A DNA stretch of 64,000 nucleotides from Bacillota bacterium (lineage in GTDB: Bacteria > Bacillota > Proteinivoracia > UBA4975), in contig JBMNFF010000001.1 in NCBI GenBank assembly GCA_050949165.1, positions 1,059,185 to 1,123,184 of the forward strand, read 5' to 3'. The stretch's first letter is position 1, and the number at the start of each line of letters is the position of its first letter. Shown piece after piece: positions 2,478 to 58,976 of the stretch. The translations under genes were made by a program, and so were the position numbers. The notes beneath the pieces are model-generated. The model was given only the letters and a program-made list of their open reading frames with translations, was not told the DNA's origin and searched no databases.

Positions 2478-3650
2478 CTAAATCAGTTTCATTTCCCGGC
2501 CGACCCTGCCGAAGACATCCAGGGCAAAGTCCAGGTCTTCCCTGCTGTGGGCAGCCGAGAGCATAACCCTGATCCTCGCCTTGCCGTGGGGAACCAGGGG
2601 GAAGCCGATGCTGGTGGCAAAGATGCCCTCTTCAAACAGGCGCTTGCTGAATTCCGAAGCATCCCGGGCATCGCCGATCATCACCGGGGTGATGGGGGTT
2701 TCGGTGACGCCGGTGTCATAGCCCAGTCCCTGCAGGCCCTCCTTAAAGATCCGGGCGTTTTCCCAAAGCCTTTCCACCAATTCGCCGCTCTCCTGGAGGA
2801 TGCGCACTGCCTCCAGAGTAGCGGCAGTATCGGGCACCGTCAGGGCAGAGCTGAAGGTAAAGGGCCGGGCCTTCTGTTTGATATACTCCACTATTTCGGC
2901 GCTGCCCGCTATGCAGCCGCCCATGACGCCCAGAGCCTTGGAAAATGTGCCAATTTCCACATCCACCTGGCCGTGAAGGCCAAAGTGGTCGACGATGCCG
3001 CGGCCAGAGCGGCCCAGGACGCCTTCGCCGTGGGCATCGTCCACATAGGTCATGGCGCCGTACCTTTTCGCCAGCTCGACCATTTCCGGCAATTTGGCGA
3101 TGTCTCCGTCCATGCTGAAGACGCCGTCGGAGATCACCAGTACCCGTCCCTCCAGGTCCTCCTTAAGGACTCTTTCCAGACCTTCCATATCGTTGTGGGG
3201 ATAGACCTTGATTTGGGCCCTGCTCAAGCGGGCGCCGTCGATGATGCTGGCGTGGTTGAGCTCGTCGCTGACTATGGTATCGCCCTTGCCCACCAGGGCG
3301 GGAATTGCGCAGAGGTTGGCATTAAAACCGGACTGAACCGTCAGGCAAGCCTCCACACCCTTAAATTCCGCCAGTTCCCGCTCCAGCTCTTCGTGGATGG
3401 ACATGGTGCCGGCGATGGTGCGCACGGCGCCTGGCCCTACTCCGTACTTGTCGATGGCGGCCTTGGCTGCCTCCCGGATCCGCTCATGGGCGGCGAAGCC
3501 CAGGTAGTTGTTGGAGCAGAAGTTCAGAACTTTCCTGCCGCCAATCTGCACCCAGGCGCCCTGGGCGCTCTCGATGGTGCGGATGTTTTTGTACAGTCCC
3601 TTTTCCTTCAGTTCCTCCAGTTCCGGCTTGATAAAATCCAAAGTTCCCAT
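2478..3650 (-). CDS. kbl: glycine C-acetyltransferase (2-amino-3-ketobutyrate CoA ligase)
   Basis: 390 aa; alignable by eye to Kbl along whole length ([32 protein letters not shown]). Confidence 0.9.
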
Positions 3651-4694: not shown

Positions 4695-4800
4695 AGTGTC
4701 AACCAAGGTTACCACTCCTCGAATAAGATTTGTCACCCTATTACTATTGGCTCACTTGGAAGAATACGACAAGAGAAATGTGAATTCCTGCCCAAAGAAA

Positions 4801-4850
4801 GGGGACGGGACTTTTCGTTTCACCGACCTGAAACGAAAAGCCCCGTCCCC
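4801..4850 (-). terminator. GC-rich hairpin (about 21-bp arms, 6-nt loop) between transketolase stop and tdh; probable terminator; GGGGACGG-type palindrome
   Basis: ggggacgggacttttcgtttca / tgaaacgaaaagccccgtcccc inverted repeat 8 nt after the tkt stop, followed by T-rich tract on the minus strand. Confidence 0.6.
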
Positions 4851-4857
4851 GTTGTTT

Positions 4858-8222: not shown

Positions 8223-9336
8223 CTACTGCCCCTCCCCGTAGCCTGCTTGCCAGCGCAGCCAGGCGTCAATAAACACATCCACATCTCCGTCCAGGACGGC
8301 GTTGGCATTGCCCACCTCCACATTGGTCCGGTGGTCTTTGACCAGGCTGTAAGGATGAAACACATAGGAGCGAATTTGGCTGCCCCACCCGATTTCCCGC
8401 TGTTCGCCTCGAATCCTGGCCAATTCTGCCTCCTGCTCCTGGCGCTGGCGGTCGGCCAGCTTGGCCTGGAGAATCTTCATGGCAGCCAGCCGGTTGGCGT
8501 GCTGGGAGCGTTCATTCTGGCAGGAGACAACTATCCCCGTGGGCAGGTGGGTGATCCGCACCGCCGAGTCGGTGGTGTTGACATGCTGCCCCCCGGCGCC
8601 GCTGGACCGGAAGGTATCAATGCGCAGGTCGTCGGGATTGATTTCGATTTCCGAATCCTCACTGACCTCGGGAATGACATCCAGGGAGGCAAAGGAAGTG
8701 TGGCGCCGCCCCGAAGAGTCAAAGGGAGAAATCCGCACCAGGCGGTGGACTCCCTTCTCGGCCTTGAGATGCCCGAAGGCATACTCGCCCTTGATCAGCA
8801 GAGTCACGCTCTTGATTCCCGCCTCTTCATCGGGCAGGTAGTCCAGGATTTCCACCCCGAACTTATGCTTCTCCGCCCAGCGGGTGTACATGCGCATCAG
8901 CATCTCCGTCCAGTCCTGGGACTCCAGGCCCCCGGCCCCGGAATGCAGGGAGATGATGGCGTTGTTGCGGTCATACTTGCCGCCCAGGAGTTGGGTCAGC
9001 TCCAATTGGCTGAGCTCTGCCCGCAGCGCTTCCAAGCCCTGACCGATCTCGGCCGCCAGTTCCGCCTCGTCCTCGGCCAGGGCCAGCTCGGTAAGCTCCG
9101 CCAATTCCTGCCAATCCCCCTGGAGCTTGGTCCAGGCATCGGTAACCCGGCGCAGGGAATTGACCTGGCTGATGACGGCTTGGGCCTGCTGTTGATCATC
9201 CCAAAAGTCGGCCCCGGACATTTTGGCTTCCAGCTTCTCTACTTCCCTGAGCTTGGCGGGGAGGTCAAAGGGAGACCCCCATTTCCTCGATTCTCTTGCC
9301 AAGCTGCTGAAGTTCAGACCTGTATTCGCTTAGCAA
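8223..9336 (-). CDS. prfB: peptide chain release factor 2 (requires programmed +1 frameshift)
   Basis: RF2 core incl. SGAGGQHVN; frame-0 leader [23 protein letters not shown] ends at in-frame TGA within CTT TGA C (9264-9270, minus strand); TTG start at 9336 with GAGG RBS. Confidence 0.9.
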
Positions 9337-9361: not shown

Positions 9362-9444
9362 CGCGACAACGGGGACGCTTCTCCCTGTCGCGGTTGTCAT
9401 TCATCGCCGCCGACGCGACAGGGAGAAGCGTCCCCGCTGTCGCG
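9362..9444. repeat. nested palindromic element: two 31-bp arms (CGCGACA..GGGGACGC..TGTCGCG) that are near-perfect reverse complements, 21-bp spacer
   Basis: arms 9362-9392 and 9414-9444 differ at one position from perfect inverted repeat; lies in secA-prfB intergenic region. Confidence 0.75.
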
Positions 9445-9445
9445 C

Positions 9446-11950
9446 CTACTGCCCGCAGCAGCGCTTGTACTTCTTGCCACTGCCGCAGGGGCAGGGATCG
9501 TTGCGACCCACCTTTTTGGCGGCCTGCTTGGGCCCGTGGACTGCGGCGCCGCCGCTGGGCGGAGTGGGATTGGCCACTGCCACTGAACGGCGCACCGGCT
9601 GGCTGACCAGGCGCACCCGCATGATCAAGCGGGCCACTTCTTCTTGGATGCTCTCGGTCATATTGTTAAACATATCGTAGGCTTCGAACTTGTACTCCGT
9701 CAGGGGGTCCTTCTGACCGTAGGCCCTGAGGCCGATGCCCTGACGCAGGTCGTCCATGGCGTCCAGCTGCTCCATCCACTTCCTGTCCACGGTGCGCAGC
9801 ACCACCACCCGCTCCAATTCCCGCATGGCTTCGGAGCCGATGGTCTTCTCGCGGAACTCGTAGAGGGAACGAGCCCTGGCCTCCAGCCACTCCCGGATCT
9901 CGTCGTGGATTTTGCCCTCCAGGTCTTCCACCTTGACGCTGCCCGGGACCAGGACGCTGTTCTCGATATATTCTACCAGCCCCTTGAGGTCGTATTCCTC
10001 GGGGTACACTTCCTTGCTGGCCCAGGTATCCACCGCCCGGGCAATCACTTCGTCCATCATCTTGAGGATCTGCCCCTTGAGGTCTTCGCCCTCCAGGATC
10101 TGGCGGCGCTGCCGATAGATGATGTCCCTCTGTTGGTTGAGGACATCGTCATATTCCAGGACATGCTTGCGGATGTCAAAGTTGCGGGCCTCAACCCGCT
10201 TCTGGGCCGATTCGATGGCCCTGGAAAGCAGGGGATGGTCGATGGGCATAGAGTCGTCCATGCCCAGTTTTTCCAACATGCCCATGTAGCGCTCCGAGCC
10301 GAAGAGGCGCATGAGGTCGTCTTCCAGGGAGATGAAGAATTGAGACGAGCCGGGATCCCCTTGGCGCCCGGAACGCCCCCGGAGCTGGTTGTCGATTCTC
10401 CGGGCCTCATGGCGCTCGGTGCCCAGGATGTGCAGGCCGCCCAGGTCGGCAACCCCTTCCCCCAGGACGATGTCGGTGCCCCGACCCGCCATGTTGGTGG
10501 CGATGGTCACGGCGCCCCTCTGACCGGCCCCGGCCACGATTTCCGCCTCCCGCTCGTGATGCTTGGCGTTGAGGACGCTGTGGGGGACCCCCCGCCGCTT
10601 GAGCATGGCGCTGAGGAGCTCCGACCTCTCGATGGATATGGTCCCCACCAGCACCGGCTGCCCGGTACTGTGACGCCGGACAATCTCATCCACCACAGCC
10701 TTGAACTTGCCTGCCTCGCTGCGATAGACGGCGTCGGGCAAATCCTGGCGGATCATGGGCCGATTGGTGGGAATTACCACCACATCCATGCCGTAGATCT
10801 TGCGGAACTCGTCCTCTTCGGTCTTGGCCGTTCCCGTCATGCCGGCAAGCTTTTTATACATGCGGAAGTAATTTTGCAGGGTAATGCTGGCCAGGGTCTG
10901 GCTCTCCCGCTCTATCTTGACATTTTCCTTGGCCTCGATGGCCTGGTGCAAACCGTTGGAATAGCGGCGCCCAAACATCAGGCGACCGGTAAATTCGTCG
11001 ACGATGATGACCTGGCCATCCTTGACCACATAGTCCCGGTCCCGCTTCATCAGAACGTGGGCCCGCAGGGCCTGGTTGACATGGTGGGAAACTTCCATAT
11101 TTTCAGGGTCATACAGATTCTCGATATTCAAGGCCTGCTCGATTTTGGCCACGCCCTCTTCCGTCAGGGCGACGTTGCGGGCCTTTTCATCAACTATGTA
11201 GTCAACTTCATTGCGGAGCCTCGGCACCAGCCGGGCATAGCGGTAGTACTGGCTGGTATCCTGATCGACGGCGCCGGATATGATCAAGGGGGTCCGGGCC
11301 TCGTCGATGAGGATGCTGTCCACCTCGTCGACGATGGCAAAGTGCAGGGGCCGTTGCACCAGGTTTTCCTTGTACAGCACCATATTGTCCCGCAGGTAGT
11401 CAAAGCCGAATTCATTATTGGTGCCGTAGGTAATATCAGCCAGGTAGGACTGGCGGCGTTGGCCCGGGTCGAGGCCGTGAACAATCAGGCCCACATTCAA
11501 ACCCAGCAGTCTGTAAATCTTGCCCATCCATTCACTGTCCCGGCTGGCCAGATAATCGTTGACAGTGACGACGTGAACGCCCTTGCCCTCCAGGGCGTTG
11601 AGATATGTAGGCATGGTGGCCACCAGGGTCTTGCCTTCACCGGTCTTCATCTCGGCGATGCGGCCCTGGTGGAGGACAATGCCGCCCAGGACCTGGACAT
11701 CGTAGTGGCGCTGGCCCAAAGTCCGCTTGGCCCCTTCCCGGACCAGGGCATAGGCCTCCGGCAAGAGGGCGTCCAGCGTTTCTCCCCGGGCCAGGCGTTC
11801 TTTAAACTCCCCGGTCTTAACCGCCAGGCTGTCGGTATTCAGCTTCTCAAATTCGGGTTCCAGGGCGTTGACTTTCTCCACAATGCGCATCAGCGCCTTG
11901 ATTTCCCGGGCGTCATCCCCGGTCAGCAGCCCCTTGATGAACTTAAACAT
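9446..11950 (-). CDS. secA: preprotein translocase ATPase SecA
   Basis: 845-aa ORF with DEAD-like motor motifs and C-terminal zinc-binding [14 protein letters not shown]; start taken at MFKFIKG. Confidence 0.95.
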
Positions 11951-12076
11951 CCTTCCACCCCATTCACTCAATCCTGTCTCCATGGCTATTCTTCATTCTA
12001 TCATCAAGGCAAATAGGTGGCAACCTGACCCCGCTCATAGCAAAAGGAGGATGCGGTTATCGCTATCCTCCTCTTA

Positions 12077-16171: not shown

Positions 16172-16482
16172 TAAAACTTACCTCCAAAAATGATGTAGCT
16201 TGTAAAGCTCGATTCATCCTACCATAGTAAAAAGGCCAATGTCAATTTTACCGAAAAAACTGTCAATGAAGTCCGACAGCTGACCTGGTCTTTGCCCCCA
16301 CACTCGCCTGCTGGAGGGTTCGCGCTAACTACTGCCTCTCTCGGTTTTCCCGGCAGGACTTACTTCTAAGCCGCACCATGCTCGGCAGTTGGTTTTTTTT
16401 GCTGCCTTACGTGGGTCGTTTCGCCTGCGACTGGCCTCGACTTTCAACCACAGACCTGTCAGACATCATTAGAGTAACGTAT

Positions 16483-16734
16483 TCTGACCAAAATTGCAAA
16501 AGCAATTTTGGTCAGAATTGGGGACGGTCCTCAGCCCATTACCCCTTCCCACGGCAGGAGGCCCGTCCCATAAATTGCAAAAGCAATTTTGGTCAGAATT
16601 GGGGACGGTCCTCAGCCCATTACCCCTTCCCACGGCAGGAGGCCCGTCCCATAAATTGCAAAAGCAATTTTGGTCAGAATTAGGGACGGTCCTCAGCCCA
16701 TTACCCCTTCCCGCGGCAGGAGGCCCGCTCCCAT
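16483..16734. repeat. three tandem copies of an 81-bp unit, each containing a palindromic spacer and a GGGGACGG..CCGTCCC inverted repeat
   Basis: units at 16491-16571, 16572-16652, 16653-16733 (third copy with 3-4 substitutions); 34-bp palindrome TCTGACCAAAATTGC-AAAA-GCAATTTTGGTCAGA at 16483-16516. Confidence 0.9.
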
Positions 16735-22144: not shown

Positions 22145-22266
22145 AAAAAACCCCTTCAGGTTTGAAAGGGTTCGTCACCCCTCATCTGCGGGAATTGGCA
22201 CCGTGCCCCGTGGCCGGTTGCCGGGTTTCATCGGGCCCGCCCCTCCACCTCTCTCGATAAGAGCTC
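22145..22266 (-). ncRNA. SAM-I (S-box) riboswitch with intrinsic terminator, leader of metK
   Basis: minus-strand sequence CTCTTATCGAGAGAGGTGGAGGGGCGGGCCCGATGAAACCCGGCAACC...GGTGCCAATTCC...GCAGA matches S-box consensus; followed by hairpin and TTTTTT. Confidence 0.85.
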
Positions 22267-26243: not shown

Positions 26244-26315
26244 CGCGACAGCGGGGACGCTACAGATTGTCGCACCCCCGGCGGCCGCGACAGGCCGAAG
26301 CGTCCCAGATGTCGC
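26244..26315. repeat. paired-hairpin element related to 9362-9444 (CGCGACA..GGGGACGC..TGTCGC and CGCGACA..GCGTCCC..TGTCGC)
   Basis: two 30-bp halves at 26244-26273 and 26286-26315 in the PfkB-GH36 intergenic gap. Confidence 0.6.
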
Positions 26316-26333
26316 AGACGGGAGGTTTAGAGA

Positions 26334-28322
26334 ATGCAATTTGGCAAAGCCCGCCTCAGCTTCCGCGACGCAGGGAGGGCAGAGACAGTGACCTTCTCTG
26401 ACCTGAGCTGCAGCCACCCCCGGCTGCAGGTCTCCCCTCACCTGCAAAAACTCCGCCACGGCGCCGTCCTCACCTTGACCCTGACCGCTTCCGAGCCGGT
26501 GGAACTGGAAGAATTCATCCTGGAGGCCCAGCTTCCCAAGGGGAATATGCTCAGCAACGGTTACCAATCCTGGTCCCGAACCAAGCTCTACCGCCCCGAC
26601 CAATATATGGCTCCCCTCTTCGCCCTGGCCCGGCCCCTGCTCAGTCCTTACGGGGATTACTCCCTGATTCGGCGCAGCGGCCGCCGCGGCCATTTCTTTT
26701 CCTGGTCCTGGACAGGCTTTGAGCAGGAGGGCAACTGGTTCTTGCTGGGTTCCGACGCCGAAGACTGGGGATACACCCTCTTTGAGGTCGATGGACGCCA
26801 GGAAAAACTCTATATCCGCCGGGACTGCCAGGGCGAAATAACCTCGTCCTACCCCCTCCTCCAGCTCTACTACGGCTGGGGCGGTGAAGGTGAGGTGTGG
26901 GATGAATATGCCTCCCTGCTGACCCGCCGACGTCCCAACGCCCGGCGCTGCACCGGCTGGACCAGCTGGTACAACTACTATACAAAGATCGACGAGGAGA
27001 TCATCCTGGACAACCTCCGGGCCCTTTCGACCTCGGGGCACCCCTTCCAGATCTTCCAAATCGACGACGGCTGGCAGGAGGCCATCGGCGACTGGCTGGA
27101 TATCAACGCAAAATTCCCCTCGGGCCTGGCCAGCCTCGCCCGGACAATTCGCCAACGGGGTTTCCGCCCCGGCCTGTGGCTTTCCCCCTTCATTTGCGAT
27201 AAAAAATCCCGCCTGTGGCGGGAGAATTACGACTGGGTCCTCAAGGACGAGAAGGGTCGTCCTGTCAAGGCCGGCTGGAACCCCGGCTGGAATGGCTGGT
27301 TCTACGCCCTGGACTTCTATGCCCCGGGCTTTCAGACCTGGCTCAAGGAGGTCTTTGCCACCATCCTGGACCAATGGGGGTTCCAGATGGTCAAGCTGGA
27401 CTTCCTCTATGCCGTGGCCCTGCGCCCCCACCACGGCCGCTGCCGGGGGCGGATCATGGCCGAGGCCATGGAGTTCCTGCACCAAATCTGTGGAGACAAT
27501 TTCATCCTGGGCTGCGGCGTACCCCTGGCCCAATCAGCGGGCCGGGTGGACTTCTGTCGCATCGGCGCCGACGTGGCCCCCTACTGGGAAGACCGATTCC
27601 TGCGGACGATAGGCTACCGGGAGCGGGTCTCCACCCGCAACTCCCTGGCCAGCACCCTGCACCGGCATATGCTGGACAGGCGGTTCTTCCGCAACGATCC
27701 CGATGTCTTCCTCCTCCGGGACGGCGTCCCCAAGGTCAATGAGAACAAGCTCAGCCTCGCCGAGCGCCATACTTTATTCTTCCTCAACAACCTCCTGGGC
27801 GGCCTGGTCTTCCTCTCGGACCATGTGGGGGAGTACACCCCGGAGCAGCAGGCCCAGCTGGCCGAGATGTTCCCCAGCCTGGAAGCAGAAATAACCCGCT
27901 TCCATTACCAGGGGGAACTGTTTGTAATTGAGTTCCAGGTGGAGGAGCGGGAATACGTCGCCCTGGTAAACTTAAGCCCCAAACCCGCTTACCTCGACCT
28001 ACCCCCGGGCCAGTGGTTCCACCCGGAGCTTAAAGTCTGCACCGGCCACCTGGATTTGCAGCCCCACCAGACCCTCTGCCTGGCCAAGGTCAAGCCCCAG
28101 GCCCAGCCCTATGTGCTGGGGAGCAGCGGCCACCTGTACCCCGGCGCCCAGGTAGAATCCTTTACCCGGGAAGGGGATGGCTGGACCCTGACCCTGAAAT
28201 CCTACTCTTCCCCCCACACCCGGGTCTGGATAGCCCTGCCTGAAGGGATGGAAGAACTGGTGGTCAACGGCACCCGCCCAGAAATCATCCACTGGGGACG
28301 GTTCCCAGTGGCGCAAATCTAA
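26334..28322 (+). CDS. glycoside hydrolase, GH36-like (clan GH-D, alpha-galactosidase fold)
   Basis: QIDDGWQ, GLWLSPF and MVKLDF motifs typical of GH36/GH27 catalytic domain; family assignment by eye. Confidence 0.6.
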   Translation: MQFGKARLSFRDAGRAETVTFSDLSCSHPRLQVSPHLQKLRHGAVLTLTLTASEPVELEEFILEAQLPKGNMLSNGYQSWSRTKLYRPDQYMAPLFALARPLLSPYGDYSLIRRSGRRGHFFSWSWTGFEQEGNWFLLGSDAEDWGYTLFEVDGRQEKLYIRRDCQGEITSSYPLLQLYYGWGGEGEVWDEYASLLTRRRPNARRCTGWTSWYNYYTKIDEEIILDNLRALSTSGHPFQIFQIDDGWQEAIGDWLDINAKFPSGLASLARTIRQRGFRPGLWLSPFICDKKSRLWRENYDWVLKDEKGRPVKAGWNPGWNGWFYALDFYAPGFQTWLKEVFATILDQWGFQMVKLDFLYAVALRPHHGRCRGRIMAEAMEFLHQICGDNFILGCGVPLAQSAGRVDFCRIGADVAPYWEDRFLRTIGYRERVSTRNSLASTLHRHMLDRRFFRNDPDVFLLRDGVPKVNENKLSLAERHTLFFLNNLLGGLVFLSDHVGEYTPEQQAQLAEMFPSLEAEITRFHYQGELFVIEFQVEEREYVALVNLSPKPAYLDLPPGQWFHPELKVCTGHLDLQPHQTLCLAKVKPQAQPYVLGSSGHLYPGAQVESFTREGDGWTLTLKSYSSPHTRVWIALPEGMEELVVNGTRPEIIHWGRFPVAQI

Positions 28323-28464
28323 ACCTGCGACAACAGGGATGTTTCAGATCGTCTCAAAATCCATCTCCGCACGCTCCCGGAACCAGGGAGGTAATCGGCT
28401 CTCGAGACGGCGCCCATAACACAACGGAAACAAATTTGAGACAGGTGCACGCGTCCCCGCTGTA

Positions 28465-29118
28465 TCATTGCGAAGGGAAAAAGTGCTGCATTGCCCTATT
28501 TTTATTTTCTTGTGACAGCTTAGTTATTTCATTGGATCGGTGGATATTATTTAATCTATACCTAACCCAAGCCGGAAATATCTCTTTCATGTCCTGGGCA
28601 TACAAAGAGCCGTCCCTGGGAAACTGTTTCCCGATTACCGTAAATCCGCCGTTGGTTAAATCCACTGTAACCAAACAGGGCATGGATGAACCGCTTTCCT
28701 TCACGACTCTTCCCTGTTGGGGAAAATAAATTTCCTCCAGCACCCAGAGGTAAACCTCCACCTTTTCATCTGAAATAAAAGAGTATCCATAGATTCTAAA
28801 GGATGCAAAGCTTTCTGCATTATCCGATTTGGCATGCCCCGCTGTCAAATATTCCTGAATAACTTTGATATTATCCTCAGCAAAGGACATGTTTCTTTGC
28901 TTGCCAAATAAAGTAATCATTTCACTAACGTTTCTACCCTTTTTCGCAACCTTATAGCCTAGGCCGATGTAAATAATTGCTTCATCAGTATCGGAAGTCC
29001 GAATGCTGAATATCGGATTTTTATTAGCCAGAAATCTGTAATAGTCCACTCCGAATAGTATGGTCCACGCAACCAAAATAACCAGACCAAAGAACAACAG
29101 TTTGCGTTTTAGTAACAA
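28465..29118 (-). CDS. hypothetical membrane-anchored protein encoded in an AT-rich insert
   Basis: 217-aa ORF, TTG start with AAGGGG RBS; N-terminal TM helix; local GC clearly below flanks. Confidence 0.5.
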   Translation of the reverse strand: MLLKRKLLFFGLVILVAWTILFGVDYYRFLANKNPIFSIRTSDTDEAIIYIGLGYKVAKKGRNVSEMITLFGKQRNMSFAEDNIKVIQEYLTAGHAKSDNAESFASFRIYGYSFISDEKVEVYLWVLEEIYFPQQGRVVKESGSSMPCLVTVDLTNGGFTVIGKQFPRDGSLYAQDMKEIFPAWVRYRLNNIHRSNEITKLSQENKNRAMQHFFPSQ

Positions 29119-29144
29119 TTATATTTCCCCTTAATCATTAGATA

Positions 29145-29168
29145 TGGCCAAGAAATATTTCTTGGCCA
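29145..29168. promoter_or_regulatory. 24-bp perfect palindrome TGGCCAAGAAATATTTCTTGGCCA upstream of the AT-rich-island gene
   Basis: about 27 nt upstream of the TTG start at 29118; candidate operator or terminator. Confidence 0.4.
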
Positions 29169-29400
29169 CTAGCCTCTATCTTCTAACCCTAGCGTACTTA
29201 GGGATATTGTTCTCCCAGCCGTTTACGGAACTACTTGTCCAAGCATGATAGTTGCTAGTGTGTTGAGCTACCTTATAGTCATAATAAGTTTTCCAGAATA
29301 TTGTACTCCTTATTATTTTATAATTTAACTATATTGCTACTTGATTAACATTTCAAGTATTTATATACAATAAATTTTTGTTTTAAAAGGAGGCATTGAA

Positions 29401-32046: not shown

Positions 32047-32236
32047 CACCCAATAAAAAAGGGTTACCGGAAATGACAGGTAACCCTTTCTTAAATTATG
32101 CAAGGCCTTTTAGCCATCCTGACGAAGCCGGGCGGCAAGAGCCGCCCCTGCAACGCCGCCACCCGCAGGTCCAGGGGGAGCAGCCGAACCATGTAATCGC
32201 CCCTCCGACACCGGGTGTGAAGCAAAAGAACCGTCC

Positions 32237-33574
32237 CTATGCTTCCAATGTTACGGTAAAGACCGCCCCCTGGTCATTATGCACCTGGATTTCTCCCCCA
32301 TGCTGCTGGACCACGGCCTGGGCGATGGAGAGGCCGATGCCATGCTTGCCGCCCAGGCCCTTGTAAAAGCGGTCAAAGATATGGGGAAGGTCCTGGTCGC
32401 TGATGCCAGGACCATCGTCGGCCACCCGGGCCACCGCCCGGCCTTGGACAAGGCGGCAGGACAGGGTGATGCGGCTGTCGGCATAGCGGATGGCATTGGC
32501 AATGAGATTGGAAAAGGCCCGGGACAGGCCCTCCTCGTCGCCCACCACCTCCACCGGCTCCGGGTCGAACTCAAAGGTGAGGGATATTCCCCCTTTCTCA
32601 GCCAAAGGGCGCAGGGTCTCGGCGCTGTTGGAGATGACCTCCCGCAGGTCCAACCGCTCCTTCTTTGCCGTGCCCAGGCTGCTGTCCATCCGGGAAAGGT
32701 AGAGCAGACCATCCACCATCTCCCTGAGTCTATCGGCTTCGTCGATGATAACACCGCTGGACTGCTGGCTGTCCAGGATGCCGTGCTGGATGCCCTCGGC
32801 ATTGCTGCGAATGGCCTGGAGGGGGGTGCGCAGTTCGTGGGAGACATTCTGAAAGAAGGTCTTTTGCTCCCGATCATAGCTTTCCAGCTGCTGCGCCGCC
32901 CAGTTCATGCTCTCGGCCAACTCTGCCAGCTCGGCATCCCGGTACTCCGGGCTGCTGGTCCGGAAATCCCCCTGCCCCAGGCGGGTGGCAAAGCGGGTCA
33001 GCTCCCGCACCGGCCGGGCGATGACCCCGGACAGGAAGAAGGCCAGGCCCACCGCCAGCAAGCCCGCCACCGCCATGACCCAGACCAAAGTGGTGTTGAT
33101 ACGGTCGGCAAAGGCAGAGATGGCTGTCATATCGAAGTAAAAGATATAATAGTAATAACTCCCGGGCTGGTTCACCGAGACAAAGTAGTAGTCCCGACCC
33201 GAGGCCCGGAGGTTCATAATCTTGTTACTGTCCAGGTTGACCTTCTCCGCCGCCAGCGCCCTGGCCAGGACGTAGACCTCTTTGAAGTTCTCCAAATAGG
33301 TCAGGCCCAGATCCGGCACCACCAAGTCGTAGTCCCTGGTGACGATGATGAACTGCCCCGACCCCGCCGGGCCCAGGGGCAGGCCGATGGTGCTGCGCCC
33401 GGGCGTTATCCGGAGCACTTCCCCCAGTTGGGCCTGGACGCTGCTCAAGATATAATCCCGAACCAGGTAGTTAAAGGCCACCTGGATCAGGAGAAAGGTC
33501 ACGGCCAGCAGGAGGAGGATGGAGATCAAGATACGGGCGCGGATGCTGATTTTTCCCCGGCTAGCCACGGCCAT
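32237..33574 (-). CDS. two-component sensor histidine kinase
   Basis: two TM helices, HAMP-like linker, H-box SHELRTPL, HATPase domain. Confidence 0.85.
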   Translation of the reverse strand: MAVASRGKISIRARILISILLLLAVTFLLIQVAFNYLVRDYILSSVQAQLGEVLRITPGRSTIGLPLGPAGSGQFIIVTRDYDLVVPDLGLTYLENFKEVYVLARALAAEKVNLDSNKIMNLRASGRDYYFVSVNQPGSYYYYIFYFDMTAISAFADRINTTLVWVMAVAGLLAVGLAFFLSGVIARPVRELTRFATRLGQGDFRTSSPEYRDAELAELAESMNWAAQQLESYDREQKTFFQNVSHELRTPLQAIRSNAEGIQHGILDSQQSSGVIIDEADRLREMVDGLLYLSRMDSSLGTAKKERLDLREVISNSAETLRPLAEKGGISLTFEFDPEPVEVVGDEEGLSRAFSNLIANAIRYADSRITLSCRLVQGRAVARVADDGPGISDQDLPHIFDRFYKGLGGKHGIGLSIAQAVVQQHGGEIQVHNDQGAVFTVTLEA

Positions 33575-35427: not shown

Positions 35428-35546
35428 TCAGCATCCCCCTTTTTTTGATTTCTCCAGTTATAATTTACCTGGGGGGCGACTTGGAAATCACCGCAGCGGG
35501 CAAGCAAAATTGCCGCAAACCTGCGGCAGAAGCATGGGGAAGCATG

Positions 35547-35609
35547 GGGACGGTTCTTTTGCTTCCCCAACAACGCCTTGGAAGGCAAAGGAAGCAAAAG
35601 AACCGTCCC
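35547..35609. repeat. perfect 20-bp inverted repeat GGGACGGTTCTTTTGCTTCC / GGAAGCAAAAGAACCGTCCC (GGGGACGG family) directly upstream of the ATP-grasp RBS
   Basis: arms 35547-35566 and 35590-35609 with 23-nt loop; preceded by tandem 10-bp duplication agcatgggga x2 (35531-35550). Confidence 0.8.
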
Positions 35610-35625
35610 ATTTGGAGGAGTGAGC

Positions 35626-50403: not shown

Positions 50404-51399
50404 TTAATTGCTGAGTTCCGCCCTAAGCTGCAAGACCTCAGATATGGGAAGCTCAGACACTTGCGCCACTTGCTCAGGAGTAAATCCCAGCCGGAGCGCA
50501 TTTCTGGCTGCTAGTCTCTTTGCCTCCAGAATCCCTTCAGCCCTGCCCTCTGCCCTGCCTTCTGCCCTGCCTTCAACCCGGTACTTCTGCCAGGTTTCCT
50601 GCAAGATTCGTTCAAAATTAGTTATCAATGATTTTCCCCCCTTCCTTCTCAAATGGATCAGGACTCGATCACGGTCGTGTTTCTCCATTCCCTTTAAGAG
50701 TACCTTACCTGTCCACCTAGAAAAACGCCGTACATCTTCTTCCGGCATCTGATCCAAGACTGCAGCAAGCTCACCGATTCCAAACAGCACCTCATCCATC
50801 CCTCTGTGTTGCTCCATATAGAAGACACTACCCATCAAATTGCCCAGGGCAAGCAGCTGGCCCTTGCCATATCTATTTACATCAACGAGGATGTATTTAA
50901 AATCTAATGCGTATTTGCTAAAGAACTGAAATCCTGCCTGACATTGGCTAAAGCTTGTCCCCGCCGTCCATTTGCCTTTCCCATTGTATAGCACGCACGG
51001 GACAATAACCGGCAGAGCGAAACTCCCTTTACAGGCAACCTCATTGAACCAATAATTGCGCCAGATTTCCACCATATACATCAATAAACGAAAGGGCATC
51101 ATTTGATCGACGGTAGATTGCAATTCCAGCAAGAGATAGAAGTATACATCTTGCTCGGCCAAACGAAGCCTGTAGATCAGATCGGCCTCTTGGTGCCGAA
51201 AGTCCTGTAGTATAAAGGATTTTGGAATAAGCATTACGTCTTTCGCCTGAATGCCCTTGACCCACTCTGCCTTAACAAAGGTCTGCAAGAATTGCAGAAA
51301 GGTCGACTTATTGGCCAGCAAATACTTGTACCCCGTATCATGCTTATTGCTGGGGACCGCATATTCCTGGTCTGGCTCCCTAACCAAGGCTAAGGACAT
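50404..51399 (-). CDS. Rpn-family (YhgA-like, PD-(D/E)XK) recombination-promoting nuclease / putative transposase
   Basis: N-terminal HDxxYKxL and nuclease core pattern, C-terminal repeat-containing domain (EGRA x3-4 then LGFTPEQVA...LP) as in E. coli Rpn proteins; start moved to MSLALV at 51399. Confidence 0.7.
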   Translation of the reverse strand: MSLALVREPDQEYAVPSNKHDTGYKYLLANKSTFLQFLQTFVKAEWVKGIQAKDVMLIPKSFILQDFRHQEADLIYRLRLAEQDVYFYLLLELQSTVDQMMPFRLLMYMVEIWRNYWFNEVACKGSFALPVIVPCVLYNGKGKWTAGTSFSQCQAGFQFFSKYALDFKYILVDVNRYGKGQLLALGNLMGSVFYMEQHRGMDEVLFGIGELAAVLDQMPEEDVRRFSRWTGKVLLKGMEKHDRDRVLIHLRRKGGKSLITNFERILQETWQKYRVEGRAEGRAEGRAEGILEAKRLAARNALRLGFTPEQVAQVSELPISEVLQLRAELSN

Positions 51400-51524
51400 A
51401 GTAGCCGCCGCCTTAATAATAATGTTAGCACAGTTTCCAATAATATAATATAGGAACACGTGTTCCCTGTCTAGCTTATCTTTTCTCTGATGGTAGCAGA
51501 AATAGAGTCTCCAATTAAGCGGGT

Positions 51525-51773
51525 GGGGCTGTCGCAAAATGAGATATTCGTACATATTCTCCCGAAAATCTCTCCGGGTAGGGGCCGAAAGTATAAAGAA
51601 GGAGCTGTCGCAAAACTAAATCTCCGCGCATATTACCTCAAGAAAATCTCTGTGGGTGGGGGCCAAAAGATCCCCCTATAAAGGTAATCCAATGTAGGGG
51701 CGGGTTTTCCCGCCCGACTCACAAGAATGGCTAATTGGGGAATATGGCGGATTGCCAGTTTTGCGACAGCCCC
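51525..51773. mobile_element. MITE-like element bounded by inverted GGGGCTGTCGCAAAA(T/C) termini, with internal partial duplication
   Basis: left terminus 51525-51541, internal direct copy 51601-51616, inverted right terminus 51758-51773; no ORF. Confidence 0.55.
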
Positions 51774-51779
51774 TTGCTT

Positions 51780-53702
51780 TTACGCCAAGGCCTTTTCTAT
51801 TTCCGCCATGGCCCTTTCCTCCAGGTCGCAGCATTGCCGGACCAAGGCGAGGACCGCCGGAGCCTTGCCAGGGTCAAAGGCCTGGCCCCCGGGCCCGGTA
51901 AAGGGGACCAAGCGGGTTATCTCCTGGTAATTCGCTGCCACCTGGCGGTAGAGGTCAATTGTACCCTCCAGGCCCTTTAGTTCACCGGACCGGGCGGCAA
52001 CATACTCCAGGTATTTGGCGATGCAGGCCTTGGAGTCAGCATAGACGTTGAGATTATAGGCCAGGCCGAAGGGGTCGTAATCTCCCCGTTCCAAAGTGCT
52101 TATGAGATTGGCATAGGCCTTTCTGCCGCAGGCATACCCGGGAGTCGAGTGCTGCTCTTTATTCCACTCCCTCAAGCCGTATTCCAGGGAATCCCGATAG
52201 ATCTTCTCCGGGTCGACCTCCACCCTGCCCTTGAGAATCTGCACAAACAGGTATGGAACCTCGGATATGCCCAGGTTGCCATAGCTCAAGGGATCCGGAT
52301 CTGAGTTGAGGCAATCTTGAACAAACAAAACTTCATCGCCGTCATCATAACCGTCAATCAGGCCAAATTCCAGGAGACCTGTCGGCGCCCAGGTGATCGC
52401 CGGCACCCCCCTGGCTATGGATGCTTTGATCTTTGCCAGGGCATCCTCCTGAATCATATGGAAAGTGTTGAGCCTGGGGTCCCTGAAGACCAGGACTATT
52501 TCGCTGTGCACGCCAATCCTGTCCAGCATGGTGAAATGCTCCATCCCCCAGTCGTACACCGTCACCGAGCTGGGGCAGGCCGTTTCGTGCACGATGAAGT
52601 GAAAGGCCATCCCCGTCATGCCCATGAGTTTATAGATCTCGTCCTGCCACCACTCCACCTTGCGCAAAGCGCCGTCCACGCTGGCGATATATGAGTTCCA
52701 GGTCATTCCCATCTTCGCACCCAGTCGCATTGCCGCATCAGTACCTCCTTTAACAGGTTGTGGCTCCATTATAATCGACGGGGTAGGACATAAAGTGTCG
52801 CACCCCTCAGGCATATTTGCCAAAATCATCTTTTGTAGCCTGGAACAGAAGCGCTGCCGTAACCAGCGGGGTGAAAGAAGGGTAAATTGTTCTACCCCGG
52901 CTATAATTGCCGCCAGAAATTTGCTGGAATTTGTGAATTCCACTCTGTAGACCTGAGGCTCTCCAGAGGGAGATACCCGCAGCCCCGCCTTTCTCAACTG
53001 ATTCTCCCCCTGGGTTTTTACAAGGGCCACATAAGGCCTGCGGTAGTTAAAGTCATCTTTATATTCCTCCGGATCAAACCAGGGAACGATGGTAAACTCC
53101 TCGTCCCGAACCAGGGCGCCTCTTATCCGCTCCAGTTTAAAGATGCGGACCTCCCCGCGGAGTTCACAATACCCGACCACATAATTGCCATCCCCCTGAC
53201 AGAAGAATTTATAGGGGCAGATGATCCTGCGGGATTTTACCCCCGCGGCGCTGACATACTCTATCTCAACTTTATGCCTCGATTGCATGGCTTTGCTGAG
53301 GAGCTTATATGCCCTGACCTCCCGGGGACCGGGATTGATAATTGGTAAATTCCTCTCGCCTTCGCAGTTTCCTTCCCCGCCCAAGCGGGCAAAGAGTTGG
53401 GCCAACTGCCGGGCCTGTCCACCTTCCCTGTTTCGGTAGTGGAAGGCCAGGTAATCCAGGGTGGCCTTTTCTTCTGCCGAAATAAAATTGGCCGGCAGGA
53501 TAAAAGCTCCCCCTCGGTAAAAATACCCGTTGTTCCTGGGACAATATGCAACGGGCGCCCCCAGGGAGTAGCGCAAGTACTCAATATCCCGGGAAGCCTG
53601 GCGGGTAGAAATCTCAAATTCCTCGGCAATAATTCGGCAATTGGGATACCTGCCATGGCGAATCTGCTGGTCAATCCAGAGTATCCTGTGTAAGCTGCTC
53701 AT
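51780..53702 (-). CDS. HTH-WYL domain regulator fused to about 340-aa uncharacterised C-terminal domain
   Basis: N-terminal HTH (NCRIIAEEFEISTRQASRDIEYL), WYL-type beta domain (RRIICPYKFFCQGDGNYVVGYCELRGEVRIFKLERI), continuous 640-aa ORF; ATG with GGGGGTGA RBS. Confidence 0.65.
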   Translation of the reverse strand: MSSLHRILWIDQQIRHGRYPNCRIIAEEFEISTRQASRDIEYLRYSLGAPVAYCPRNNGYFYRGGAFILPANFISAEEKATLDYLAFHYRNREGGQARQLAQLFARLGGEGNCEGERNLPIINPGPREVRAYKLLSKAMQSRHKVEIEYVSAAGVKSRRIICPYKFFCQGDGNYVVGYCELRGEVRIFKLERIRGALVRDEEFTIVPWFDPEEYKDDFNYRRPYVALVKTQGENQLRKAGLRVSPSGEPQVYRVEFTNSSKFLAAIIAGVEQFTLLSPRWLRQRFCSRLQKMILANMPEGCDTLCPTPSIIMEPQPVKGGTDAAMRLGAKMGMTWNSYIASVDGALRKVEWWQDEIYKLMGMTGMAFHFIVHETACPSSVTVYDWGMEHFTMLDRIGVHSEIVLVFRDPRLNTFHMIQEDALAKIKASIARGVPAITWAPTGLLEFGLIDGYDDGDEVLFVQDCLNSDPDPLSYGNLGISEVPYLFVQILKGRVEVDPEKIYRDSLEYGLREWNKEQHSTPGYACGRKAYANLISTLERGDYDPFGLAYNLNVYADSKACIAKYLEYVAARSGELKGLEGTIDLYRQVAANYQEITRLVPFTGPGGQAFDPGKAPAVLALVRQCCDLEERAMAEIEKALA

Positions 53703-58316: not shown

Positions 58317-58805
58317 TTACCTTCTCTTCAAATACAGGGCCAGGCCTCCGACCACAGCCAATACCGCCAGACCGCCTGCCGCCCAGATGAATGCCCCATT
58401 GGAATTGGAAATAGGCGCCGCCTCAATCGGTTCGGCATCATCCAGCTCTACATCCAGGTCCTCGGCGCCGGACAGGATTGTAAAGATGGGGTTCTCCGCC
58501 TGGGCATCGGCCTCGGCCTGGACCAGCTGCTGATATTCTTCCTCCCCCAGGATGACCTCCCGGGGCACATCGACATGGACGGTAACCGACTGGTCGTCCT
58601 TGACCAGGACGATGTTGAAGACCTCCCGGCCCAGAGCGACAAAATCCTGGACCCAGCTTTCCGAAACCTCGTAGCCGGGATATTCCTCCAGGGCCAGCCC
58701 ATGCAGGCGATTCTGCACCTCTTCGGGCAATATCCGCAAGACGGCGGAGGCTGGGGCGACGGCCAGCACCAGGATAATAGCGGTAAGAACCAACAAGCGT
58801 TTCAT
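58317..58805 (-). CDS. secreted protein with N-terminal signal peptide and C-terminal hydrophobic anchor plus KRR tail
   Basis: start MKRLLVLTAIIL with GAAGGAGG RBS; acidic central region; C-terminus ...GGLAVLAVVGGLALYLKRR. Confidence 0.6.
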   Translation of the reverse strand: MKRLLVLTAIILVLAVAPASAVLRILPEEVQNRLHGLALEEYPGYEVSESWVQDFVALGREVFNIVLVKDDQSVTVHVDVPREVILGEEEYQQLVQAEADAQAENPIFTILSGAEDLDVELDDAEPIEAAPISNSNGAFIWAAGGLAVLAVVGGLALYLKRR

Positions 58806-58875
58806 GTTTTTTCCTCCTTCACGCCAGTTTACAATAGGACGCCGAAGCCGGGCAATTGGTTCATTCATAAAGAAC

Positions 58876-58976
58876 GGGGCTGCCGCAAAATGTCCCCCTG
58901 TCATATTGGAAAGCCCGCCCTGCCGGGAATGTCCCGCAGCGGGCAATATGCAGAGATATCATTTTGCGACAGCCCC
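58876..58976. mobile_element. MITE-like element, second copy (GGGGCTGCCGCAAAATG ... CATTTTGCGACAGCCCC)
   Basis: 17-bp inverted termini at 58876-58892 and 58960-58976; same terminal motif as 51525-51773. Confidence 0.5.

Follow-up and report, generated by a model that had tools for sequence, protein, structure and literature searches.

secA (9446..11983, minus strand), an open reading frame whose homologs are named SecA, lies upstream of prfB (8223..9336, minus strand) in the window, i.e. the whole 64-kb stretch of DNA analyzed here. The best named relative among the SecA homologs is Anaerobranca (73% identity), and the lineage is one of uncultured Bacillota. The window species was detected in several metagenomes, including a 1.1-Mb JGI contig. 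prfB was identified from its sequence and from an alignment with relatives. It starts with TTG at 9336 and carries a programmed +1 frameshift (CTT TGA C at 9270-9264), for which the classical site GGGGG-TCT-CCC-TTT-GAC is kept.

Architecture and position of the paired units

The gap between secA and prfB holds two 31-nt units in inverted orientation (doublet 1). The left arm, unit W1 (9362..9392, plus strand), reads CGCGACA AC GGGGACGC TTCTCCC TGTCGCG and is an exact match to the unit pattern given below. The right arm, unit W2 (9414..9444, minus strand), is complementary to W1 at 30 of 31 positions. Both are of the beta type (see below), and the 21-nt spacer between them (9393..9413) reads GTTGTCATTCATCGCCGCCGA. 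Since each unit is closed by a perfect 7-bp terminal stem (CGCGACA...TGTCGCG) around ACGGGGACGCTTCTCCC, the original prediction of near-perfectly complementary arms that are palindromic in themselves was confirmed. W2 ends 1 nt from the secA stop codon (9446-9448), and the layout of locus 1 is TAG-G-doublet-14 nt-GAGGTG, with GAGGTG as the ribosome-binding site of prfB. Two further features were noted at the start of prfB. The start codon is TTG in the window species vs ATG or GTG in relatives, and a run of seven T, the last two of which belong to the TTG, lies between ribosome-binding site and start only in the one species that carries the doublet.

In total, the window contains six copies of the unit YGCGACA-NN-GGGGACGC-N7-TGTCGCR, arranged as three convergent inverted doublets, i.e. 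three doublets per 64 kb, and all of them are intergenic. The second doublet lies between pfkB and the gene for a GH36 protein. It consists of the alpha-type unit W3 (26244..26274, plus strand; N7 = TACAGAT), which starts 2 nt after the pfkB stop codon, an 11-nt spacer (26275..26285, CCCCCGGCGGC; 16 nt in the ortholog at the related locus L034), and the beta-type unit W4 (26286..26316, minus strand; N7 = TTCGGCC), which ends 3 nt before the GH36 ribosome-binding site GGGAGG. The layout here is TAA-AG-doublet-GAC-GGGAGG. This pair had been noticed before, with its end placed at 26315 instead of 26316. An extra CGCCACAG directly before the CGCGACAG end of doublet 2 was observed in L034 (921-940) and gives the impression that the terminus of the element was partially duplicated in tandem.

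What had been described as a degenerate trace after GH36 is a genuine third doublet, with its span corrected to 28326-28467. The decayed alpha-type unit W5 (28326..28356, plus strand) starts 3 nt after the GH36 stop codon, and the decayed beta-type unit W6 (28437..28467, minus strand) contains in its outer stem the TGA stop codon of a convergent 217-aa open reading frame (28465..29118), giving the layout TAA-ACC-doublet with the stop codon of this frame at the far end. The spacer (28357..28436) measures 80 nt in the window vs 11 nt in L034. A covariance model scored W1 with 46 bits, W5 with 34.5 bits, and W6 with 41 bits, all three being training sequences; the scores of W5 and W6 are not independent because both units were among the sequences from which the model was built. 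The identity of doublet 3 as a copy of the element rests on the intact orthologous doublet in L034, in which the counterpart of W5 lies at 3019-3049.

Two side observations concern the surroundings of doublet 3. First, a low-GC island (28450-29400; 36-45% GC vs 60-65% in the flanks) is located between this doublet and an MFS transporter gene. Its open reading frame, the 217-aa frame on the minus strand (28465..29118), had no Pfam or NCBIfam matches, and the island is absent from L034, L035, L040, and L041. Second, the last codons of GH36, encoding W-G-R-F (TGGGGACGGTTC), lie in a hairpin loop both in the window (28289-28311) and in L035 (2903-2935), and the stem of this hairpin varies between species (CCACTG/CAGTGG vs ACCAGCCA/TGGCTGGT). 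The arrangement may go back to an old hairpin element taken up into the coding end, or may be coincidental.

A search with CGCGACANNGGGGACGCNNNNNNNTGTCGCG, allowing up to 3 mismatches, returned W1 to W4 on the strands given above, i.e. exactly four good units in 64 kb. Matches to the composite unit were obtained in none of 100 dinucleotide shuffles of the window. Neither GGGGACGC alone nor CGCGACA alone was enriched within the window, and the significance of the repeat derives from the composite unit. With filters off, the covariance-model search found no further degenerate copies in the window, L027, L029, L030, L031, or L033. Readings of the TGTCGCR stem as a Spo0A-box-like site or of GTTCTTT as a SinR-like operator, both presumed resemblances, were rejected as unsupported.

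From 17 units of three species, we derived the consensus YGCGACA-NC-GGGGACGC-N7-TGTCGCR. It describes a 31-nt hairpin with a 7-bp stem (YGCGACA/TGTCGCR) and a 17-nt loop, which contains the GGGGACGC box and a variable 7-mer. Across all 17 units the outer stems and the box are conserved and the 7-nt segment varies, as had been read from the window copies. Two unit subtypes can be distinguished by this segment: alpha with N7 = TACAGAY and beta with N7 = TTC(G/T)(G/C)CC. In the window as in L034, loci 2 and 3 combine an alpha unit, placed next to the upstream stop codon, with a beta unit (heterodimers), and locus 1 is a beta-beta homodimer. All seven measured doublets are convergent with their GGGGACGC boxes outermost, and their spacers are 11, 11, 16, 21, 48, 64, and 80 nt long. 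Some copies have homologous spacers, namely L013 with L016 and, within L034, locus 2 (gaatcccgcc...) with locus 3 (aaatcccccgc). This spacer homology suggests that the doublet, rather than the single unit, is the unit of propagation.

Folding and covariation

As RNA, doublet 1 folds into one long hairpin (-77.9 kcal/mol, z = -8.2), and its value as DNA is -44.3 kcal/mol (z = -10.8). For doublet 2, the RNA value is -42.9 kcal/mol (z = -3.1), and the folding of doublet 3 was indistinguishable from that of shuffles. Single units as single-stranded DNA reached -8 to -9 kcal/mol, with z of about -3.2 to -3.6 for three window units and -1.8 for a unit of the metagenome-assembled genome (MAG) CTOTU40444; the hairpin of W1 was calculated at -9.2 kcal/mol (z = -3.2). 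The anatomy had been read correctly from the start, including the choice between two small hairpins and one long hairpin.

Stem cells were paired in 92% of cases across the 17 units. Three stem pairs were changed on both sides, and the observed values were reached by only 5-7 of 500 shuffles. One unit of L009 has a fully compensated stem, TGCGCCA/TGGCGCA, and at locus 3 of the window the inner stems changed together (GTCGC to GTCTC, GCGAC to GAGAC) with the pairing between the units kept. The covariation is modest and supports a constraint on the hairpin or the palindrome. As palindromes can be homogenized by intrastrand templating without selection, covariation of this kind is no proof of a function as RNA.

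No terminator-like site was detected between 9200 and 9600, and the sequence following the hairpin is AUGCUCAGGAAAGCGAGGUG. The suggestion of an intrinsic terminator was not borne out: the element lacks a U tract and is embedded in operons, with the next ribosome-binding site immediately downstream of it. Among Rfam families, searched at gathering and E-value thresholds, only raiA and the SAM riboswitch scored above the gathering threshold in the window, and at the element itself only generic hairpins of miRNA precursors were matched, all of them below threshold. The SAM riboswitch (22179-22263, minus strand) lies upstream of metK, and the raiA RNA is located at 16271-16464 (minus strand).

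Gain and decay of doublets in related species

Comparison with related loci revealed differences between species at all three sites. Doublet 1 is absent in L033, L027, L029, and L030, whose SecA proteins are 89, 87, 85, and 84% identical, respectively, to that of the window. From the secA stop codon to the prfB start, these four relatives have approximately 20-50 nt vs 109 nt in the window, of which 83 nt are the doublet. Within the window species, doublet 1 is fixed (present in 4 samples), and its strains are near-identical at the three loci, differing by two substitutions shortly upstream of locus 3 and a single one within the element at locus 2. We also considered the spacer of locus 1 as ancestral intergenic DNA between two separate unit insertions, based on TC.GCGGCGA, which it has in common with L027. 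This idea was rejected because the match is short and G+C-rich and was not seen in L033, L029, or L030.

Among the relatives compared, doublet 2 is present only in the window and L034 (GH36 87% identical). In L035 (77%), L040 (75%), and L041 (72%), pfkB and GH36 abut or overlap without it. Doublet 3 is the most widely retained; L034 has it in intact, compact form, and decayed versions occur in the window, L035, and L040, so that persistence at the orthologous site extends to four genomes (GH36 75-100% identical) for locus 3 and to two for locus 2. These distributions point to an insertion order of locus 3, then locus 2, then locus 1. The order agrees with the ranking by complementarity of the arms, which is 18/31 for locus 3, 23/31 for locus 2, and 30/31 for locus 1.

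The original prediction had also raised a recombination site, and such an attC-like or Xer-like site for site-specific recombination could bracket cassettes such as GH36. Two doublets in direct orientation flank this gene (26244-26316 and 28326-28467), they begin right after stop codons, as attC sites do, and a 0.95-kb low-GC insertion abuts doublet 3. However, a distance of 17 bp between the 7-bp boxes is more than the core site of a tyrosine recombinase allows, the units contain neither a GTTRRRY nor an RYYYAAC core, and the annotated genes of the window include no integrase or recombinase. Both secA and prfB are core genes, and GH36 occupies the same position in relatives that have just the downstream copy or lack an intact one altogether. 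We consider this explanation extremely improbable.

Sequence divergence of the units was compared with that of neutral positions. Between the window and L034, 103 of 124 unit positions (83%) are identical, compared with 84% at 4-fold degenerate sites of GH36, which indicates that the net evolution of the units is neutral. The loci differ in this respect: at locus 2 all 28 stem positions are identical (W3 matches its L034 ortholog at 30 of 31 positions), and locus 3 has lost stem positions.

A selected cis-regulatory RNA acting on prfB and GH36 as terminator, attenuator, stabilizer, or switch between two hairpins or kissing loops would account for the location on mRNA between co-directional genes, 1-3 nt past a stop codon and 3-14 nt before the next ribosome-binding site. 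It would also suit the very stable folds, the complementarity of the loops GGGGACGC and GCGUCCCC, and the identity of 28/28 stem positions at locus 2 against a neutral identity of 84%. Against this reading, the element is missing from the orthologous secA-prfB gap in four relatives and from the pfkB-GH36 gap in three, the units diverge neutrally overall, and locus 3 is decaying. Furthermore, there is no U tract and no Rfam family, the host genes are functionally unrelated, and one copy of MAG CTOTU40444 lies in a divergent promoter region. Selection as a regulatory RNA is very unlikely on these grounds, and the element, which four related species lack at secA-prfB, is not a conserved attenuator of prfB.

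MAG CTOTU40444, which comes from the same assembly as L035, carries more doublets beside (i) typA, (ii) an alpha/beta hydrolase gene, in which the unit encodes the last codons, (iii) an ECF sigma factor gene, and (iv) an ABC transporter gene. At least four of its loci have units that match the exact pattern. An exact-pattern scan of a collection of species-representative genomes found paired units only in this MAG (4 loci); eight other matches in this collection were all single and probably due to chance. The same scan of a metagenome contig collection, which does not include the window species, gave eight single matches and no pairs, and a viral contig collection gave one chance match. Covariation and further copies in the genome had been named beforehand as the points on which the original prediction depended. 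Both were found, as copies occur in the window, in L034, and in MAG CTOTU40444, and the stems covary modestly.

Presence and absence between species, further loci beside unrelated genes, and neutral decay argue for a dispersed repeat. We consider it probable (approximately 80%) that the element is a non-autonomous, presumably mobile and lineage-specific family of palindromic doublets similar to REP, BIME, and REPIN elements, which would be a new family in Bacillota. The earlier interpretation was thus partly supported, being right about structure and wrong about function.

Proposed mobility and possible relatives of the family

Under the REPIN-like reading, the insertions of doublets would date from different times. 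Their targets would be very short gaps, as a rule at 0-3 nt downstream of a stop codon and ahead of the following ribosome-binding site, with the 3′ end of a gene hit in occasional cases, and the copies would afterwards decay at an approximately neutral rate. The family would have been active across the divergence of several species. Movement may proceed by mobilization of single-stranded hairpin DNA through an enzyme of the HUH/Y1 (RAYT-like) or a similar type whose gene lies elsewhere in the genome. Placement after stop codons is perhaps explained by this being the sole harmless site in operons with gaps of 20-50 nt.

Searches for a partner of the element and for traces of its movement covered several sources. 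The annotated genes of the window and the related loci include no RAYT (PF01797, Y1) and no other candidate transposase. The sole transposase-like gene of the window encodes an Rpn/Transposase_31 protein (50404-51555) and has no units nearby; a search with this protein (best match 73% identical) revealed no new unit loci. No direct repeat indicative of a target-site duplication flanks any copy, including the youngest, for which the empty site is known from relatives. Neither a BLAST comparison of the doublet with plasmid sequences nor a search of the literature for its motif strings returned anything relevant. Mobilization specifically by a RAYT is a tentative proposal, to which we give somewhat less than even odds.

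As a classical MITE, the element would derive by deletion from a DDE-type insertion sequence (IS), have the 31-bp units as its terminal inverted repeats, and be moved in trans by the transposase of this IS. Such an origin would fit the inverted ends, which are conserved over 31 nt and enclose a variable 11-80 nt, the fixed orientation, and the homologous internal sequence of some copies. However, no target-site duplication was seen at the youngest or any other copy, each end forms a hairpin whose loop box is conserved, a typical trait of ends recognized in single-stranded form, and no IS with these ends occurs in the window or in approximately 150 kb of related loci. Bacterial MITEs such as the Correia elements of Neisseria and the pneumococcal RUP and BOX elements have target-site duplications or modular boxes and known parent IS families. 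What they share with the doublets is a small size, an intergenic location, inverted ends, and the lack of autonomy, together with co-transcription and the capacity to affect how stable neighboring mRNAs are; unlike them, the doublets have no target-site duplication, and no parent IS was found. A MITE origin is unlikely, and HUH/Y1-type recognition is favored over it because of the hairpin ends with a conserved unpaired box, the missing target-site duplication, and the long vertical persistence.

For a co-transcribed REPIN-like doublet, the long hairpin could act as a barrier to 3′-exonucleases or as an obstacle at the stop codon and, as a side effect, shift the expression of secA relative to prfB or of pfkB relative to GH36. 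In the case of secA, the hairpin begins 1 base past the stop codon and 14 nt before the prfB ribosome-binding site; it could shield the 3′ end upstream of it, interfere with termination or the release of ribosomes, or break the coupling between secA and prfB. REPs near stop codons in E. coli reportedly have such effects. Effects at the mRNA level are plausible as predicted by-products of the insertion.

Further hairpins with similar loops were observed in the window and related loci. A second hairpin family, referred to as family B (the doublet units being family A), consists of a GAAGCA or GGACAA stem around GGGGACGGTTCTTT and occurs in pairs or singly at non-orthologous sites in relatives. 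One family B hairpin of the window (35535..35569, plus strand) reads GAAGCA-T-GGGGACGG-TTCTTT-TGCTTC and has a decayed inverted partner at approximately 35585-35612; a single one (32219..32245, minus strand) contains the TAG stop codon of a histidine-kinase gene. Another is found in L030 (1909-1939), and an inverted pair of GGACAA-G-GGGGACGG-TTCTTT-TTGTCC follows metK in L027 (314-407). The loop of family B resembles that of W1 and W2 (GGGGACGCTTCTCC) and the stem is different; judged from these sequences, the two families are possibly related.

In 158.6 kb (window and related loci), 20 hairpins carry GGGACG in the loop and have a stem of 6 bp or more; 12 of them belong to family A, and the GAAGCA hairpins of family B and the GGACAA pair after metK are among the rest. 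Shuffles gave 2.3 such hairpins (maximum 7) and permuted cores a median of 4.5. Of 52 occurrences of GGGACG/CGTCCC, 17 fall in intergenic DNA, which makes up 10.7% of the window, an approximately 3-fold enrichment. The excess of these hairpins and their intergenic enrichment suggest, without proving it, a super-family defined by the loop box. Family A might be one branch of a wider, undescribed 'loop-tagged' super-family of hairpin repeats of this Bacillota lineage, with 5-8-bp stems that vary in sequence (CGCGACA, GAAGCA, GGACAA) and a conserved GGGGACG(G/C)-TTCT-like loop, often in inverted doublets, in which the loop box and not a tag at the stem foot would be recognized by an enzyme other than a canonical RAYT, acting on single-stranded DNA or RNA. 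We regard this broader proposal as speculative and rather doubtful. If true, it would mean that REPIN-like biology reaches into Firmicutes and relies there on another mode of recognition.

Several other repeats were noted in passing. TTTTGCGACAGCCCC occurs five times in the window (51525-51539, 51601-51615, and 58876-58890 on the minus strand; 51759-51773 and 58962-58976 on the plus strand), with inverted pairs approximately 143 and 71 nt apart, and this number of hits was reached by none of 100 shuffles. One set lies between a gene for a WYL-domain protein (51780..53702) and the Rpn/Transposase_31 gene (50404..51555), the other upstream of an open reading frame at 58317..58946. The sequence has GCGACAGC in common with the 5′ stem of the unit and could represent either an operator or a second repeat family. 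Three tandem 81-nt repeats (16491-16733; 100, 100, and 93% identity) immediately adjoin the raiA RNA, and each contains a long hairpin GGGGACGG...CCCGTCCC and an AAATTGC-AAAA-GCAATTT hairpin. Between genes for an alcohol-dehydrogenase-like protein and a transketolase, there is a 29-nt inverted pair (4794-4857; 90% complementary, 6-nt spacer) with GGGGACGG in each arm. Finally, two copies of CCAGGACAAAGGGGGACGG in L029 (8127 and 9919, both minus strand) flank a block encoding DUF1980 and an ArsP_1 permease, which is missing at this position in L027 and L030.

Comparison with REP, BIME, and REPIN elements

Descriptions of REP- and REPIN-type repeats come mostly from Proteobacteria. A clear doublet family in uncultured Bacillota with dated gains at three orthologous sites would widen the known host range of such repeats and offers a simple system for studying how an element comes to select the interval of a few bases that separates a stop codon from the following ribosome-binding site. 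In terms of annotation, the family accounts for strong hairpins and spurious small open reading frames in these gaps, and it cautions against reading the secA-prfB hairpin as a conserved control element of prfB.

The 31-nt unit is an imperfect palindrome of 20-40 bp that forms a stem-loop, as in the broad definition of a REP. REPs occur as homo- or heterodimers with spacers of 20-100 bp downstream of open reading frames (PMC3733652), and REP families were not reported from Firmicutes in the survey of Di Nocera et al. 2013 (PMC3733652). Likewise, the element resembles the E. coli REP/BIME and the GTAG- and CGTC-tagged REPs in its unit size (20-40 bp), in forming a homodimer (locus 1) and heterodimers (loci 2 and 3), in lying mostly downstream of open reading frames between co-directional or convergent genes, and in running into gene ends in some cases. 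GTAG- and CGTC-tagged REPs have an unpaired tetranucleotide at the foot of a stem of 8-9 bp or longer and a loop of 4-5 nt (PMC3733652). In contrast, the present unit has no unpaired GTAG or CGTC at the stem foot, no conserved tetranucleotide was found in the flanks of the units, and CGTC (GCGTCCCC) is located inside the 17-nt loop. A classification as CGTC-tagged REP was rejected because of this geometry (7-bp stem, 17-nt loop, CGTC within the loop).

In the accounts drawn on here, REPINs are described as two inverted REPs with a spacer that are vertically inherited and long-lived. The doublets likewise consist of two inverted short palindromes with a short spacer, fold into a long hairpin, and are extragenic and non-coding; the inverted pair with its spacer appears as the replicating unit, persists at orthologous sites, is inherited vertically across related species, and decays with age. 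They differ from the REPINs of Pseudomonas and Enterobacteria, which occur with a cognate single-copy RAYT gene that has the same REPs on its flanks, in their Bacillota host and in that no linked RAYT was found among the annotated genes. They also differ in shape, with a long stem and a small loop in REPINs vs a 7-bp stem and a 17-nt loop holding the conserved box in the doublets.
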